Virus record (IMG/VR): IMGVR_UViG_3300047160_026157
From: an uncultured virus (IMG/VR IMGVR_UViG_3300047160_026157)
Lineage: Duplodnaviria > Heunggongvirae > Uroviricota > Caudoviricetes
Strand: one strand, 5' to 3'
DNA: 20,000 bases
In this document: one piece after another, positions 2,264-19,414 of the stretch
Layout: each line of letters opens with the position of its first letter
Position numbering within the stretch: position 1 is the first letter of the stretch
The notes under the pieces: generated by a model
Seen by the model: the letters and a program-made list of their open reading frames with translations, nothing else
What the model was told of the DNA's origin: nothing
Database searches by the model: none
Translations under genes and position numbers: made by a program

Positions 2264-2277
2264 GGGGGCTGAGAGCG

Positions 2278-2790
2278 GTGTTCAACTGGCTCTGGCGGTG
2301 GTTCGGCTGGGACGCCGGCGCCCCCTCCGAGTGGGAGGCCCGCCACGTCCCCCTGAAGGGCTCGGTTGGGACGCACATGCCCCTCTGGGGTAGCGTCGGG
2401 ACAGCGATGCTCCTGGAGGGCGGTGTCGGGACGCATATCCCGCTTTGGGGGGCCCAGACCGTGGCCATTTACCAGACCTGGGGCTGCTTCCGCGGCGAGG
2501 ACGTGCTCCTGACCGACACGCTCCGGCCGCCGGGTGGCATCACCGGCTGGGCCATCACCTTCACGCTCAAGAAGCTCTACACCGACCAGACCGTCCTCAT
2601 CACCAAGACGGTCGGCAACGGCATCAGCATCATCGATCCGATCAACGGGGTCTTCACCGTCGGCTTGTCGGCCCTGGACACCAACCTTCCGGCCGGCGAC
2701 TACCTGTACACGATTGCCAGGACGGACACCGGGGCACATACGGTCCTGACCTACGGCCCCGTTAAGATCCTGGACGACACCGTGTTCTAG
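2278..2790 (+). CDS. Phage structural protein with an Ig/BppU-like beta-sandwich C-terminal domain; alternative start GTG 2461
   Basis: FRGEDVLL..ITGWAITFTLKK..GISIIDPINGVFTVGLSALDT..GDYLYTI pattern resembles baseplate-upper/Ig-like phage domains. The N-terminus has four 10-aa repeats. Confidence 0.6.
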   Translation: MFNWLWRWFGWDAGAPSEWEARHVPLKGSVGTHMPLWGSVGTAMLLEGGVGTHIPLWGAQTVAIYQTWGCFRGEDVLLTDTLRPPGGITGWAITFTLKKLYTDQTVLITKTVGNGISIIDPINGVFTVGLSALDTNLPAGDYLYTIARTDTGAHTVLTYGPVKILDDTVF

Positions 2791-2792
2791 GT

Positions 2793-2820
2793 AACAGGGG
2801 GCTCACGCCCCCCGTTCGCC
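2793..2820. terminator. GC hairpin between convergent genes (bidirectional terminator or REP-like element)
   Basis: AAC-A-GGGGGC-TCAC-GCCCCC-C-GTT-CGCC lies between stops at 2790 (+) and 2820 (-). Confidence 0.55.
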
Positions 2821-3986
2821 TACAGGAAGTTCACGTGCGCCGCCGGCCGGCGGAGCGCTTCCAGGGTGGTGTTCTGCGTCGAGAGCCGGCAGGCGGGCGG
2901 ACACGCCTCGGCCGGCCGGATCGACCGTCGCACCAGGCGGGCCCGCTCGGAGTGCCAGACCTCGGGGAAGGTTGCCTGGTTGAGGTCTCCCAGGCAGAAC
3001 TCCTCACGCCCTTGCCCGTGGCAGCAGATATAGACCTTGCCCTCCGCGCTGATGGCCGCCTGGAGGAAGTGGGCGTGGCAGGCGGAGTAGGTCACGCCGA
3101 GGTCGGGCCGGCCGAGCAACTGGTACTTGTCATGGCTCCAGAGGATGCGGAAGTCGTCCCGCTCGAAGGCGGTCCTGGCGATCCGGTAGGCCGCTTCCAG
3201 GTCGCGGAAGTTGAGGGGCTCAGAGCCCATGCCGCCGCGGAGGCTGGGGTCATCGCCGGGCGGCAGGACCAGCGGGCGGAACTGCAAGTAGTCCAGGCCG
3301 GGAATGCCGGCACAGAAGCGGGCCATCTTGTACAGGTCGCCGCGGCTGACACTGGCTTTGTCCGTCAGGAAGCCGACGCCGACGGTGGGCCAGCACAGAC
3401 CTTGTTTCCAGCGGCGCTCCCTTTCTCTGGCGAAGTCGGCCAGGCGGAAGACCACCTTCCTGAACTCCCCCGGGCCCCGGCCGTGGAAACGGCTGAACGT
3501 CTCTGGGTCGTAGGCGTCGAGCGAGACGCGGACCCAGGAGAAGCCCGCGTACTCCTCCTCGGGCGTCAGGAGCGAGCCGTTGGTGATGAGGGCCGTGTCC
3601 AGGCCGCGCTCCCGGGCCTGGCCGGCCAGGGTCAGCAGGGCGTCCTGGCCCCACAGCAGCGGCTCCCCGCCGCCGGAGAACGTCAGGCCGCGGACCCCGA
3701 AGTCTGCCAGCTCCCCGACCAGGCGCACGGCCAGACTCAGGGGCATCATGTCCTTCTTGACGTTCACCCAGGCCCCGAAGGTGCAGCCGGGGCAGGCGTG
3801 GTTGCACAGCCACGTCAGGTCCAGCTCCACGGTGACGGGCGGCGGCAGCTCGCCCGCCTGCCAGGCGGCCAGGCGGTCCAGGTGGCGGAACATCTTGTCG
3901 CCGGCGAAGGGGTCCGGGCCCACTTGCTTTTCCGAGTAGTCAACCGCCGGAGCGGGGCTCTCGACCATCGGCAGGGCATTCAGCAT
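2820..3986 (-). CDS. Radical SAM protein with C-terminal SPASM/twitch domain
   Basis: CNHACPGC (CxxxCxxC), FSGGGEPLL, ITNG, VRVSLDA; C-terminal CHAH..AEGKVYICC..LGDL..FPEVW..CPPACR. Start assigned to ATG 3986, overlapping the upstream stop. Confidence 0.92.
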   Translation of the reverse strand: MLNALPMVESPAPAVDYSEKQVGPDPFAGDKMFRHLDRLAAWQAGELPPPVTVELDLTWLCNHACPGCTFGAWVNVKKDMMPLSLAVRLVGELADFGVRGLTFSGGGEPLLWGQDALLTLAGQARERGLDTALITNGSLLTPEEEYAGFSWVRVSLDAYDPETFSRFHGRGPGEFRKVVFRLADFARERERRWKQGLCWPTVGVGFLTDKASVSRGDLYKMARFCAGIPGLDYLQFRPLVLPPGDDPSLRGGMGSEPLNFRDLEAAYRIARTAFERDDFRILWSHDKYQLLGRPDLGVTYSACHAHFLQAAISAEGKVYICCHGQGREEFCLGDLNQATFPEVWHSERARLVRRSIRPAEACPPACRLSTQNTTLEALRRPAAHVNFL

Positions 3987-11968: not shown

Positions 11969-12058
11969 GTCAGTACCGCCGGCTGAAGCCGGCGGCTTGT
12001 AGCTGGGGCAGTAGTTATCTGCTCGCCGCTACTAAATCAGGGCCACTGACAGGGGCCC
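11969..12058 (-). ncRNA. TnpB omegaRNA/reRNA-like scaffold at the element right end
   Basis: Hairpin GGGCC-CCTGTCAGT-GGCCC whose loop GTCAGT complements the terminal ACTGAC (pseudoknot), then a GTAGC/GCTAC stem and the terminal hairpin. Confidence 0.55.
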
Positions 12059-12245: not shown

Positions 12246-12320
12246 GGCTGGTAGCGAAACTTACCCGGAGGCGGCAATTCCTCCGCTGCCTGAAGGCAGC
12301 GGTGTCCTTGCCGAAGATTT

Positions 12321-15198: not shown

Positions 15199-15368
15199 GC
15201 TCATGCTCCTGTGTGTCCGGGCTGCCATCCTGCCAGGTACACCTGCGTCCCTCGCGTTCAGGATTTTCTGCCCGGCATCTCACTATACGGGCGCAAAGCC
15301 GCCTGGAAAGGCAAAAAACCCCTCAACTTGGCTGCGAAAAAAAATCTGAAATCCACGGGTACTGATGT

Positions 15369-15427
15369 GCCAGTTGTAAAGGGCGCAAGTCCTTGTGGGA
15401 GAAGGGGTCGCGCCCTTTACAACTGGC
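15369..15427. repeat. Perfect 18-bp inverted repeat with a 23-bp partly symmetric spacer
   Basis: GCCAGTTGTAAAGGGCGC (15369-15386) / GCGCCCTTTACAACTGGC (15410-15427). Confidence 0.9.
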
Positions 15428-15475
15428 CAATTGTAACCATGCCTTACGGCGGCTCTTGCGGCGAAAAAAAGTTCA

Positions 15476-15504
15476 TTGACAACCCCTGCGGCCCTGCCTA
15501 AACT
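15476..15504 (+). promoter_or_regulatory. Near-consensus sigma70 promoter
   Basis: TTGACA-17 bp-TAAACT with an upstream A-tract. Confidence 0.75.
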
Positions 15505-15555
15505 CCAATCGACGGGACGCGAAACCCACACACACGGCAACAGGAGAGCAACACC

Positions 15556-15792
15556 ATGAACCTGAAAGACTTGGCCACTACCCAGGCGCTCGTGACTATG
15601 GCGATGGAGCAGTACCACAAGGACTGTGAAGGGGCCGGCTTCATGGCCGAGATGCCCTCTCTGCGCGACTCCACCGTGAACGTCAAGACCGGGCGGGTGT
15701 TCTTCAACCGCACCCGTGGCCACCTTTGCAGCTACGTTCTCAAGGACGACAAGATGGTGCGGGAGGGTGACATCTACGGCGAGAAACAGTGA
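15556..15792 (+). CDS. Hypothetical protein (78 aa)
   Basis: AGGAG RBS and a strong promoter; the stop codon lies inside the terminus of element 2. Confidence 0.75.
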   Translation: MNLKDLATTQALVTMAMEQYHKDCEGAGFMAEMPSLRDSTVNVKTGRVFFNRTRGHLCSYVLKDDKMVREGDIYGEKQ

Positions 15793-15904
15793 CGACTCCG
15801 CTGCCTGAAGGCAGCGGCTTCTCGGGGCAGTACCCGCTGGTACTTATGCTGTGACACACACAACTGCCTTTCGACCCTGTGTGGCCTTTTACCCGCTGGC
15901 CCCG

Positions 15905-16435
15905 TCAGCAGGATCGGTAGGCCAGTATGGTTCGGAGGAAGGAAAGGAACTCTTCAGGCGTGCGATTCCTCTTCATCTCGTTCACTTCCCGGCAGACCCA
16001 CTCGATGTTTGTCGGGTCGGAACGAAGTTCGGGATGCTGGTCAAGGGGCTTGATGTGATCGACAGAGTCGTTGACCCCGAGGACGAGTGCGAAGCCCGTG
16101 TAAGAGCATCTGCCCCCTTGCGCCTGCAATCGCTCTTTCAGGGCTGTCCAGGACCGGCGAGAGCCGAGCCTGTTTTTCGCCTTGTTCTTGAGGTAACAGG
16201 TTTCGCAGTAGCGGTGGTGAAGGCCGGCGGCCTTCAGAGACTCAAGATAGGGCGTTTTCCCGCAGTGGGAACACAAGCCTTGAGAAACGTTCCTGCGATA
16301 CCGCCTGATCTGTGCTTCCCTGTGTCCCGTGTGACACGGCTTGCACCGTGTCGTTCCTGGACTCGGAGGGGATTTGCCACAGACCGTGCAAAGGCCCTGA
16401 GCGATCCTGCGGTAGTAATAGGTGTCTGCGACCAT
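15905..16435 (-). CDS. HNH endonuclease with two tandem N-terminal C4 zinc fingers (176 aa)
   Basis: GLCTVCG..RCKPC and GLCSHCG..YCETC, then QGGRCSYTG..SVDHIKP..NIEWVCREVNEMK. Confidence 0.9.
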   Translation of the reverse strand: MVADTYYYRRIAQGLCTVCGKSPPSPGTTRCKPCHTGHREAQIRRYRRNVSQGLCSHCGKTPYLESLKAAGLHHRYCETCYLKNKAKNRLGSRRSWTALKERLQAQGGRCSYTGFALVLGVNDSVDHIKPLDQHPELRSDPTNIEWVCREVNEMKRNRTPEEFLSFLRTILAYRSC

Positions 16436-16439
16436 AGGT

Positions 16440-16590
16440 CCCCGTCCAGGCCAGCCCCTGTCCTACAGGGGTTTACCGAAACCGTGTTCGGTGTCGTTCC
16501 AGGGAATCCGGTTGGGTTGGACCCCGCTTGTGGCGGGAAGGCCCTTTGGGCATGTACCGTGTACCACCGGCTTCCCCCGGCAACGAAGCA
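16440..16590 (-). ncRNA. Putative structured leader RNA upstream of the HNH gene (homologue at ~12077-12210)
   Basis: Motifs shared in the same order with element 1 (CCGG..TGGTA, CACAAGCGGG, CACC-hairpin-GGTAAAC, ACAGGG) and an equivalently placed helix. Confidence 0.55.
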
Positions 16591-16595
16591 AGTGC

Positions 16596-16623
16596 AGTCT
16601 ACCCGGGCGTTCCGGGAAGACAA
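16596..16623 (-). promoter_or_regulatory. sigma70-like promoter inside element 2
   Basis: TTGTCT-16 bp-TAGACT on the minus strand. Confidence 0.65.
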
Positions 16624-16700
16624 GGTTGGTAGCGAAACTCTCTCGGAGGGCGGCGATTCCCCCGCGGGCTGAAGCCCGCGGTACCCTCGCCGCGGTCGTC

Positions 16701-16949
16701 ATGGAGGAGGGCGGCCACCCGCACCTGTTTGGCCGCAAGCCGGGCGACACTGGCCGCGGGTGCTGCTACGACGAGGCGGAGGCGGAGTTCCTGCGTGCCT
16801 GCGAACAGTACCGCGAGCGGCAGCACCTGAAGTTCATGAAGGCGACGGACTACTTCAGGGTGGTGATCGAGCTGGGCTACGAAAAGCCCCCCGCCCAGAG
16901 CCCGGCCGGGACGACGCATCCGGCAGGAGAACCAGGCGGGGGGAAGTAG
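16701..16949 (+). CDS. Small conserved protein (YDEAEAEFLRACEQYRERQHLKF..VVIELGYEK)
   Basis: Resembles a recurrent Planctomycetota family (Y..EE.EF..A...YK....FPT......LGY.K), from recall. ATG abuts the element end. Confidence 0.75.
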   Translation: MEEGGHPHLFGRKPGDTGRGCCYDEAEAEFLRACEQYRERQHLKFMKATDYFRVVIELGYEKPPAQSPAGTTHPAGEPGGGK

Positions 16950-17022
16950 GGCCCCGGCCGGGGCCCGCAGCCGGCCGCTATCAGAAAACCGGCGGCAGGA
17001 ACGACACCCGGCCGGGGTGGCT

Positions 17023-17310
17023 TCAGGACTTTTTCCGGCGTCTGGCCTTCCGTTCCTTCTCTTCCTTTTCTTCTCTCTCCCGCTGCTCGCGCTGGCGGAT
17101 CTGCTCCGCAATGAGGGGATGGGAGCGGAAGCGCCGCTCGTAGGCGTCCAGGCAATCCTCGCACAGCTCGCCCGCCTGGGCCGCGGCCGCGGAGCGGGGC
17201 AACGGTTCGCCGGCGTCCAGGCGGTCCTGCCAGTGCTCGTGGCAGAGCCGGCGGCCGCCGCCCTGGGGCAACGGCACCACCGCCACGTCGAACGATGGGT
17301 TCCAGGTCAT
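17023..17310 (-). CDS. Hypothetical Zn-binding protein with a charged tail (alternative start 17346)
   Basis: LCHEH..LCEDC; E/R/K-rich C-terminus. Confidence 0.6.
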   Translation of the reverse strand: MTWNPSFDVAVVPLPQGGGRRLCHEHWQDRLDAGEPLPRSAAAAQAGELCEDCLDAYERRFRSHPLIAEQIRQREQREREEKEEKERKARRRKKS

Positions 17311-17317
17311 GGGCCGA

Positions 17318-17569
17318 TCATCTTTCCTGAGAGGCTTGATCCACATAGGGCCCCCAGCGGTCCGCCTTGATCGTGTCGTTGCCGTTGACCCATTCCATCG
17401 CCATCCACTCGGCGTCGCAGAGGTCAGCGCACGCCCCGGTGGTGTAGATCACCGGGCCGCCGGCGCCCTTCTGGACGTTGGCGAACCACTGGCCGTCCCG
17501 GGGGAAGGTGACAATCGCGATCCGCGTCTTGCCCTTCTCCTCCTCGCTGTCGTCCTGGCACTTCTTCAT
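17318..17569 (-). CDS. Hypothetical protein (83 aa)
   Basis: AGGAGG RBS; ATG 17569 overlaps the upstream stop (ATGA). Confidence 0.65.
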   Translation of the reverse strand: MKKCQDDSEEEKGKTRIAIVTFPRDGQWFANVQKGAGGPVIYTTGACADLCDAEWMAMEWVNGNDTIKADRWGPYVDQASQER

Positions 17570-17847
17570 TGCGGCCTCCTCAGATACCAAAGGAACATCC
17601 CGCTGGGGCACTCCAGGACCCCGACCGGCCCGTCGAGGACATAGTCCACACAGTCGTGGTCGTGGCCGGGCAGGGGACAACGTCTCGGCCGGAGTTCCAC
17701 GCAGCGGTAAACCCCGCCGTGGCCGGTCGAGGCGGGGGCCCGGACCCAGTCGGGCTTGCCCCCGTCCCCGTGGATGAGATACTCGGAGGGGTCTTCCTGG
17801 CTGTGGTCCAGGGGACAGCCCGCGACCCTTTCGTACCAGAATGTCAT
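17566..17847 (-). CDS. Hypothetical Cys/His protein (93 aa)
   Basis: Purine-rich RBS and tight packing. Confidence 0.65.
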   Translation of the reverse strand: MTFWYERVAGCPLDHSQEDPSEYLIHGDGGKPDWVRAPASTGHGGVYRCVELRPRRCPLPGHDHDCVDYVLDGPVGVLECPSGMFLWYLRRPQ

Positions 17848-17851
17848 CGCT

Positions 17852-18055
17852 CTATCCCTTTCCGTCGCTGTAGCCGCACTTCGAGCAATGGCACCTCACC
17901 GGCAACGGTTTGGAGTCGTAGGACTTCCGCTTCACGACATGGCCGCATTCGAGCGTCAACCGCCACTCCTGGCGGTCGGCGGCCGCCACGGTCATCCACG
18001 CTGGCCGCGGGATGGCTTCCAGGTTCACCACCAGCTTGAGAGGCTTGATCCACAT
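17852..18055 (-). CDS. Small zinc-ribbon protein (LTLECGH..CHCSKC)
   Basis: LECGH..CxxC pattern; first gene after the AT-rich intergenic region. Confidence 0.65.
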   Translation of the reverse strand: MWIKPLKLVVNLEAIPRPAWMTVAAADRQEWRLTLECGHVVKRKSYDSKPLPVRCHCSKCGYSDGKG

Positions 18056-18138
18056 AGGGCGCCCCCAACGGTCGGTCTTGGTGAGCGGGCCGTCTACACC
18101 TTAGCTTATTCGCTCTGGGCGTGTTTTACACAAGGAAA

Positions 18139-19351: not shown

Positions 19352-19414
19352 CTCTCACACGAAGTGATATCACTTCGTGTGAGAGACAGGTCTCACACGA
19401 AGTGATATCACTTC
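19352..19414. repeat. 34-bp perfect palindrome plus a 24-bp partial second copy
   Basis: CTCTCACACGAAGTGAT|ATCACTTCGTGTGAGAG (19352-19385); TCTCACACGAAGTGATATCACTTC (19391-19414). Confidence 0.95.

Follow-up and report, generated by a model that had tools for sequence, protein, structure and literature searches.

A zinc-ribbon HNH gene at the tnpB/omegaRNA junction of IS605-family elements, and a TnpB-less derivative from an uncultured-virus contig

The guide-RNA nucleases TnpB and IscB come from transposons of the IS605 family. We analysed a 20,000-nt stretch of DNA from an uncultured virus (IMG/VR record IMGVR_UViG_3300047160_026157; this whole stretch is called the window) and found in it a 912-bp element whose sole open reading frame (ORF) encodes a zinc-ribbon HNH protein. 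We think that the identity of this element is secure: it is a non-autonomous derivative of the IS605 family that carries a TnpB-type omegaRNA/right-end module. In its fuller relatives the HNH gene recurs between tnpB and the omegaRNA, and on balance we consider it probable that the HNH is a protein-guided, homing-type selfish gene, one that colonises the tnpB/omegaRNA junction of IS605 elements and rides the transposon. The parts of the element and its immediate flanks are as follows.

15789..16700, minus strand: whole element, 912 bp, in the order left end (LE), leader, HNH gene, omegaRNA-like module with right end (RE)
16636..16700, minus strand: LE, with 7-nt terminus, outer stem GCGGCG/CGCCGC, internal loops, inner hairpin with TTCA loop, and CCTCC tract
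16436..16635, minus strand: leader, about 200 nt of unique sequence from the LE to the HNH start codon, with a weak promoter-like pair
15905..16435, minus strand: HNH gene, 176 aa, with two C4 zinc ribbons (residues about 16-34 and 55-80) and a C-terminal HNH domain (about 100-176)
15789..15903, minus strand: omegaRNA-like 3' module and RE, about 115 nt, with a CGGGG/CCCCG outer stem round two hairpins
16701..16704, minus strand: CCAT left flank (ATGG on the plus strand, in the start-codon region of the neighbouring plus-strand ORF), candidate TnpA target or TnpB transposon-adjacent motif
15769..15788, minus strand: right flank of about 20 nt, candidate guide portion by position only

Reading of the sequence revealed a hairpin at 15798-15817, with a perfect stem of 8-9 bp and a TGAA loop on the plus strand, and a nested hairpin at 16650-16693, again with a TGAA loop on the plus strand and with inverted-repeat arms at 16650-16670 and 16673-16693. 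The 7-nt termini, TGACGAC (15790-15796) and GTCGTCA (16694-16700), form an inverted repeat, and the minus strand ends in ...GTCAC at 15789, the same letters in which the REs of the relatives finish. As in IS200/IS605 elements, each end has a subterminal imperfect hairpin, terminal duplications are absent, and a short conserved candidate target adjoins; furthermore, the ends are homologous to the ends of elements that encode Y1 TnpA and TnpB. An initial annotation made from the letters of the window had proposed the 912-bp unit, its hairpins, the TCAC end and the CCAT flank, and this reading of the sequence and its inverted repeats confirmed all of them.

We retrieved close relatives of the element by peptide pattern and a 10-sequence alignment, which gave 13 loci (two from genomes, nine from metagenomes and two viral), L010 being the L008 locus with another insertion sequence (IS) inserted downstream. 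The nested LE of the window type is present in full in the HNH-bearing loci L001, L011 and L012, and its 3' half in L015. Nine canonical elements were inspected; seven of them (L021, L028, L049, L070, L075, L080 and L094) have the same LE upstream of tnpA, and the other two (L039 and L095) have a different LE type. In the window element, in L001, L011 and L012, and in those seven canonical elements, CCAT precedes the outer LE stem by 7-10 nt, and by analogy with IS200/IS605 biology it would be the target. The attribution of both ends to IS200/IS605 in the initial annotation was thus borne out, since the LE and CCAT are shared with TnpA/TnpB elements and the RE matches a model of canonical modules (R1, described below).

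The boundary at the RE was examined in soil metagenomes. Exact contigs in four soil runs bridge the RE junction of the window. Nine other contigs from the same four runs match the terminal 35 nt of the window element alone (15789-15823/15825) and have both flanks unlike it, which fixes the boundary at 15789; on their inner side these nine contigs resemble canonical hairpin B. This shows that closely related canonical right ends are present in the same soils, with no implication that they share a host with the window element. Of the complete window element, no further copy came to light. A 151-nt soil contig (run X2, record 9), a very short stretch, joins about 22 nt of the RE (15787-15808), 26 unrelated letters and about 18 nt of the LE hairpin (16647-16664), and is possibly a gene-less mini-element with related ends.

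Neither TnpA nor TnpB was found in the 20-kb window (best tblastn E 0.23, no match by hidden Markov model (HMM)), the best tblastn hit for TnpA being at E 2.0; lacking both, the element is therefore non-autonomous. The RuvC-bearing TnpB gene that belongs to an OMEGA system (short for obligate mobile element-guided activity) is likewise missing from the window, and is present in L001, L006, L008, L014, L145 and L017. The element group itself, judged by sequence, appears to be IS200/IS605 with a TnpB that resembles ISDra2 TnpB; the TnpB of L006 aligns with ISDra2 TnpB at E 1.7e-55, and the alignment spans the RuvC motifs.

We then characterised the trailer between the HNH gene and the RE terminus. 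In canonical loci the last ~110 nt consist of hairpin A (loop GGAC), hairpin B (TAAC motif), a GAGAAGC linker and a terminal hairpin; the 3' part of the window module contains, in order, the GAGAAGC linker, the terminal hairpin (15798-15817) and the end GAGTCGTCAC. Covariance model R1, constructed from 24 canonical modules that directly follow TnpB ORFs and from no HNH loci, matched the window trailer with 38.1 bits (E 5.9e-9; the unfiltered search gave 37.8 bits and E 1.9e-9). This was the sole full-length R1 match in the window, and hairpin-only partial matches lay at 11976-11998 and 12283-12302. R1 was also matched directly downstream of HNH in 10 of the 13 other close loci (counting L010, the same locus as L008), with 87 bits at L001/L006, 71 at L011, 56 at L014, 51-52 at L012, L009, L002 and L015, and 17.9 bits (E 0.0047) at L008/L010, and gave no match at L007, L013 and L016. 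L013 and L007 have a similar end by eye (…GAGTGTCA…), which we did not count among the matches. In most of the 13 loci a conserved motif of GAGAAGC, a hairpin and GAGTGGTCAC lies 3' of the HNH stop codon. The window module is rearranged, and is the weakest of the clear R1 matches (38 bits against 51-88 elsewhere).

Covariation in the three helices of eight HNH-linked modules was pronounced: 87.4% of the cells were paired, 13 of the 17 pairs changed on both sides, and none of 500 shuffles scored as high, the structure having been derived from the same eight sequences on which it was scored. The trailer of ~115 nt reported in the initial annotation is thus real and non-random. Its two helices upstream of the terminal hairpin would exceed what a transposase end needs, and because of these helices we identified the module as omegaRNA-like. 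A structured scaffold abutting the RE and then a flank-derived guide, the arrangement of an OMEGA system, can be recognised here at the level of sequence and structure, and the trailer appears to be a TnpB-type omegaRNA 3' module, not an RNA specific to HNH. By analogy with the TnpB omegaRNA layout, in which the guide comes from the right flank (Meers et al., PMC10055086, available excerpt), 15769..15788 would be the guide if the module were transcribed through the RE.

The leader behaved differently from the trailer. The initial annotation had placed on it a promoter, a structured RNA and a possible guide, none of which found support: a sigma-70 scan of 15700-16800 found nothing that reached the threshold, the best candidate by eye (TTGTCT, 16623-16618, 16 nt, TAGACT, 16601-16596, minus strand) matching 8 of 12 positions; the fold z-score was -1.62, with 8 of 200 shuffles folding equally well; and beyond the LE the leader has no counterpart in any related locus. 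As the leader is not conserved, it is no candidate guide RNA. No remnant of TnpA, TnpB or an RHH gene was found in it. The expectation that HNH homologues at unrelated loci are flanked by the same ends and leader therefore held for the ends, with the RE in 10 of 13 loci and the full LE in L001, L011 and L012, and failed for the leader.

The close relatives revealed the layout from which the window element departs. tnpB lies directly upstream of HNH on the same strand in L001, L006, L008, L014 and the viral locus L145, and L001, a contig from a chromosomal metagenome-assembled genome (MAG), encodes Y1 TnpA as well (PF01797, E 9.9e-38), giving the layout LE-tnpA-tnpB-HNH-RE. In at least six loci, with three right-end types, HNH separates tnpB from the omegaRNA; at L002 and L016 the TnpB lies further upstream with other genes intervening, and the TnpB of L002 has a right-end module of its own. 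L001 and L006 share 91.7% identity across 1947 nt, a stretch that begins at the end of tnpA and takes in tnpB and HNH; because this identity ends exactly at the RE and the flanks differ, the tnpB-HNH unit moves as one piece. L011 retains TnpB HMM positions 2-42 between its LE and HNH (E 6.4e-10, a remnant of ~40 residues), from which it follows that the TnpB-less form arose there by internal deletion; no TnpB remnant was detected by HMM in the window, L012 or L015. The proposal that an unrelated HNH had taken over the accessory-nuclease slot is therefore not quite accurate: HNH coexists with TnpB in the fuller relatives, and L011 shows how a TnpB-less form can come about by deletion. A search of the phylum Chloroflexota (401 genomes) returned only two relatives, both already known.

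Several of these loci hold further features. L002 (Chloroflexia MAG; 1655-1760, 3001-3238) contains a canonical TnpB with its module, a DDE_3 transposase, the last ~53 codons of HNH and a second module, and is a decayed HNH-bearing element beside a canonical one. At L006:1-1212, where L001 has a plain Y1 tnpA, a 299-aa ORF (313-1209) matches LAGLIDADG_3 (E 5.1e-6) and has a TnpA-like C-terminus, and a second TnpA-like C-terminal stretch precedes it; an intein or homing endonuclease within tnpA is one possible explanation, a tandem remnant another. In L001 a hairpin at 2310-2345, directly after tnpB and before the HNH cassette, has a GGAC-containing loop and resembles omegaRNA hairpin A, which may mean that a copy of the module's 5' edge flanks the HNH insertion on either side. 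The TnpB-less element L012 has a small RHH-like ORF between LE and HNH (170-367, 66 aa; RHH_1 E 0.0015, below cutoff), which recalls the Arc proteins reported in IS605 elements in the available text of a 2026 preprint (10.64898/2026.09.24.754181).

The HNH protein of the window was then compared with its own family. The zinc-ribbon cysteines (C16/19/31/34 and C55/58/77/80) and the HNH residues D126, H127, N143 and N152 all fall in columns that are invariant or at least 90% conserved in an alignment of 40 homologues, confirming the ORF of 176 aa with two C4 zinc ribbons and an HNH domain that had been called initially. The public gene call is a 123-aa truncation, and the 176-aa reading is preferable because the first zinc ribbon is conserved in the homologues. 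The protein shows the catalytic D-H ... N ... N/H motif of the HNH superfamily on a beta-beta-alpha fold, and its AlphaFold2 model has a predicted local distance difference test score of 96.7 and a predicted TM-score of 0.86. At 50% identity clustering the family comprises 2613 clusters at E<=1e-3, 1120 at E<=1e-10 and 58 at E<=1e-30, and the number of zinc-ribbon repeats varies among its members (1-6 matched stretches), as expected of a modular DNA-binding arm.

Profile searches placed this family among phage nucleases and near the HNH domain of Cas9. Pfam gave a sub-threshold HNH match only on the window protein. Among 40 family members, phrog_1035 was matched by 35, phrog_144 by 32 and PHROG 589 by 27, the first two being phage HNH/endonuclease VII families; at the domain level of NCBIfam, 19 of the 40 matched a Cas9d model and 16 a Cas9 model (best E 2.8e-9), and a single member touched the IscB model, via HNH. 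Similarly, 14 of 15 matches in a sequence profile search of the PDB were Cas9 HNH domains (best E 1.7e-5). Foldseek against the PDB found nothing at E<=1e-3 (best, the Gme HNH nickase at 5.7e-3), and the N-terminal zinc-ribbon part had no convincing fold match. The absence of RuvC and PLMP noted in the initial annotation was upheld: no RuvC, PLMP, wedge or Nop-like domain was found in the protein by Pfam, NCBIfam and PDB searches, which matched HNH only, and the 40-sequence family alignment contains no PLMP motif. On these matches the window protein appears to be an HNH of Cas9-like flavour with a zinc-ribbon arm. A viral scan with the window protein as single query found no relatives.

We investigated how common HNH is beyond the close relatives. 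An RE-pattern search of viral contigs gave at least 122 matches, of which 80 were fetched; the pattern specifies 16 bases, and many of the matches must be chance. By strict count, a perfect stem of at least six pairs is present in 29 of the 80 loci. A TnpB ORF runs straight into the RE motif in 29 of the 80 and HNH does so in one (the L015 contig), HNH being absent from the other 79; canonical elements of the same group are nearly always without HNH. A different subtype was encountered on plasmid p1 of Microcystis aeruginosa NIES-2481 (L017:2998-3402; record 126053-126457), where an intact, unannotated HNH homologue of 134 aa lies antisense to an annotated tnpB, between tnpB and a right end of another subtype whose hairpin ends ...AGTGTCAAC. 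A plasmid search with the Microcystis HNH returned the same record only.

Of the distant members of the family, most stand free in phage genomes. A second retrieval, made with these more distant members, gave 48 viral loci, and 20 loci were inspected, namely the 19 best of the 48 and the phage record L018. The R1 module was found in one of the 48 (the L015 contig again); 18 of the 20 inspected loci have neither a module nor an adjacent TnpB, L145 has TnpB directly upstream, and a looser hairpin-plus-GTCA scan of the distant loci yielded nothing above the 4.6% background. The free-standing copies adjoin phage genes, some contigs hold 2-3 copies, and in a protein atlas the closest clusters are those of viral HNH endonucleases. 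A 49-sequence tree of HNH proteins, nine rows of which have long branches, mixes IS-borne and free-standing members in one clade (100/90 support) with a polytomy inside. L157 has three HNH-family ORFs (389-1219, 1462-2289 and 2276-3037), L147 and L149 are the same viral contig, and in some large viral contigs multiple family members lie in tandem or far apart.

The element can thus be set against known systems. It has the LE architecture and CCAT flank of canonical IS200/IS605 elements with ISDra2-like TnpB, and the same RE/omegaRNA 3' module (hairpin A, hairpin B, GAGAAGC linker, terminal hairpin, GAGTNGTCAC). The canonical elements have TnpA/TnpB and the window element has neither, while its relatives carry Y1 TnpA and ISDra2-like TnpB; the window element and its relatives differ from the canonical ones by the extra HNH gene. 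Homing HNH endonucleases cleave a specific site in alleles that lack the endonuclease, and they spread through repair. Phage HNH endonucleases of this homing type (PHROG 1035/144/589) are of the same family by profile and have the same layout of zinc ribbons and HNH, but their free-standing copies are without transposon ends, whereas the window gene and its closest relatives occupy a fixed slot inside IS605. IshB keeps, and is defined by, a PLMP domain, and Tas proteins have a Nop-like RNA-binding domain. Unlike IshB, the window protein has two C4 zinc ribbons at its N-terminus, no PLMP motif and no IscB-family match, and unlike the loci of IscB and IshB, its RNA module is of the TnpB type and 3', with no HEARO/IscB-type 5' RNA. 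The comparison with IscB, IshB and TasH that the initial annotation had called for yielded no IscB-family or PLMP match for the window protein and no Tas-like domain.

The likenesses to these systems are of a general kind. IshB, too, is HNH-only, of similar size (~180 against 176 aa), with an HNH of Cas9/IscB flavour in an IS200/IS605-type element (PMC11610941, PMC13284715); the accessible parts of these papers describe it as IscB without the RuvC domains (PMC11610941) and without RuvC and TID (PMC13284715). TasH of the tandem interspaced guide RNA (TIGR) systems is likewise a compact HNH nuclease, each system comprising a TIGR array and a Tas protein according to the available portion of PMC12045711; the window element differs in having no array nearby and no match to a Tas-like domain. 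Palindrome-associated transposable elements (PATEs) resemble the window element in keeping ends and omegaRNA without a transposase, with mobilisation and guide use in trans, but are without protein-coding genes as described in the available excerpt of Meers et al. (PMC10055086), whereas the window element keeps an intact nuclease gene that is neither TnpB nor IscB. In IStrons, as the accessible text of 10.1101/2023.11.20.567912 has it, a second selfish element likewise shares IS605 with TnpB and omegaRNA; there the nested part is a group I intron, and here it is a protein-coding HNH gene.

In the reading that we favour, full-length relatives read LE-tnpA-tnpB-HNH-omegaRNA/RE, of which the window copy keeps the ends, the omegaRNA module and HNH. 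It would move only if a Y1 TnpA made elsewhere acted on its end hairpins, and would be re-homed only by a TnpB made elsewhere that used its omegaRNA module; both steps would take place in trans. The HNH would come from the large, mostly free-standing family of phage zinc-ribbon HNH proteins, members of which would have settled repeatedly in the tnpB/omegaRNA junction, the single site in these transposons that would admit them; the HNH probably cleaves DNA by means of its zinc-ribbon array rather than an RNA. Our guess is that the target is the HNH-less junction of sibling elements. We prefer this homing-type reading because of the family membership of HNH, its patchy presence, its occurrence in either orientation and its free-standing phage relatives.

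Several points weigh against it. The nuclease activity, the target and recognition by protein alone are all features that we infer. The contigs of the four soil runs contain no joint across the element, that is, no empty site, and none of the sequencing runs that contain the window stretch is recorded as RNA. The sample amounts to about a dozen independent IS-borne loci, with the bias of retrieval by peptide pattern, and the 49-sequence tree does not separate one origin of the IS association from many. Elements with an intact HNH ORF as their only gene and no TnpB occur more than once (the window, L011, L012 and L015), and this recurrence could mean that HNH serves the transposon itself. Furthermore, the HNH ORF runs into the omegaRNA module in the way usual for tnpB, its stop codon lying inside hairpin A in L001 and, in L011 and L012, 12-17 nt short of the RE end, which suggests long coexistence and possibly co-function.

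In a rather unlikely alternative, HNH would work together with the RNA-guided machinery, either using the omegaRNA and flank guide itself to cut the empty donor site or acting as a second nuclease with TnpB in trans, the latter being a split version of the RuvC and HNH pairing that is fused in IscB and Cas9. The fixed slot in at least six loci with three right-end types, the overlap of ORF and module, the recurrence of intact HNH-only elements, and their retention of module helices that TnpA should not need are all consistent with it, as are the Cas9 domains that are the closest solved structures and the domain-level matches to Cas9d (19/40) and Cas9 (16/40). However, the majority of relatives stand alone in phages, away from any omegaRNA module or TnpB, the Microcystis HNH is antisense to both tnpB and omegaRNA, PLMP, wedge and Nop RNA-binding domains are not detectable, and the window module is the most diverged of the clear matches (38 against 51-88 bits), as expected for decay and not for use. 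Similarly, the action of HNH as a ribonucleoprotein, suggested in the initial annotation, gained no evidence for RNA use, most of the distant relatives being free-standing phage genes without the RNA module. In its strongest form, a functional third OMEGA component of Cas9 type that works with the TnpB-type omegaRNA, alone or beside TnpB, and cuts the vacated donor site, we regard the idea as doubtful.

Tight recurrent linkage with IS605 ends and the persistence of intact HNH genes in minimal elements would also suit an HNH that aids transposition or retention without RNA, for example as a structure-specific nickase at end hairpins or replication forks that makes single-stranded DNA for TnpA or processes the donor gap. 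We hold this to be quite improbable: most canonical elements of the same group do without HNH (1 of 80 has it), the phage homologues have no IS context, and known IS200/IS605 mechanisms require no such nuclease in the available excerpt of Meers et al. (PMC10055086). HNH as passenger cargo that benefits the phage or plasmid replicon, for example by cutting competing genomes, with the IS605 ends only a vehicle, would agree with the mobile-replicon-like context of the window (HTH regulator, DNA methyltransferase, ParB-like protein) and with a family that is commonest in viral clusters and present in several copies per phage. But a benefit to phages does not account for how exactly and repeatedly HNH is placed at the tnpB/omegaRNA junction in contigs of chromosomal MAGs (L001), and no immunity or partner gene was seen, so that this explanation is an unlikely one. 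Finally, an ordinary phage HNH gene might lie by chance between two unrelated GC-rich hairpins, which are common in the window and include the partial R1 matches at 11976-11998 and 12283-12302. This we find scarcely credible, and we rejected it on the full-length R1 match (E 1.9e-9), the homology of the LE to TnpA elements, the boundary given by nine contigs and the same ends on HNH homologues.

Many accessory genes of IS605 elements are poorly understood, according to the available text of the 2026 Arc preprint (10.64898/2026.09.24.754181). A zinc-ribbon HNH between tnpB and omegaRNA was not found described in the full-text literature searched, a body of text that leaves subscription journals and supplements, including the original IshB paper, largely outside. 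HNH occupies the slot between tnpB and omegaRNA with several right-end types and in both orientations, and the gene survives in TnpB-less elements. It represents either a new layer of parasitism, a homing-type gene inside a homing transposon, or an unrecognised working part of OMEGA systems, and the choice between the two is directly testable with existing TnpB assays. Were HNH a third component, tnpB-HNH-omegaRNA would be a split RuvC and HNH RNA-guided system, the HNH-only elements would be the smallest RNA-guided nuclease loci known, and the arrangement would exemplify, in extant elements, the kind of neighbouring genes that could give rise to RuvC-HNH fusions.

The element abuts a plus-strand ORF exactly on either side.

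15556..15792, plus strand: 78-aa ORF whose TGA stop (15790-15792) is supplied by the terminal bases of the element; no Pfam or PHROG match
16701..16949, plus strand: 82-aa ORF whose ATG lies immediately at the LE junction; no Pfam or PHROG match

Genes in the surrounding 20 kb specify an HTH regulator, a DNA methyltransferase, and ParB-like, radical-SAM and protease-like proteins; no phage structural genes are recognisable in the window, which looks like a mobile replicon from soil. An Rfam scan of the window (E<=1) gave no family inside the element, HEARO included, and microRNA-model matches to outside hairpins only; blastn of 15500-17000 against phage records gave no match, and no tandem array of the TIGR or CRISPR-like type was found within or next to the element. 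Elsewhere in the window, a near-perfect long intergenic hairpin at 15364-15431 scores against the Rfam model mir-BART20 (E 0.00087, far below gathering) and is almost certainly a plain inverted repeat; a similar palindrome lies at 19364-19411. Small minus-strand ORFs are located at 17023-17346, 17852-18055, 17318-17680 and 17844-18068, two of them beginning MWIKPL, and ...PYVDQASQ... occurs both at the end of ORF 17318-17680 and at the start of ORF 17844-18068, which suggests that a small-gene module has been duplicated about 0.8 kb apart within 17023-18068.

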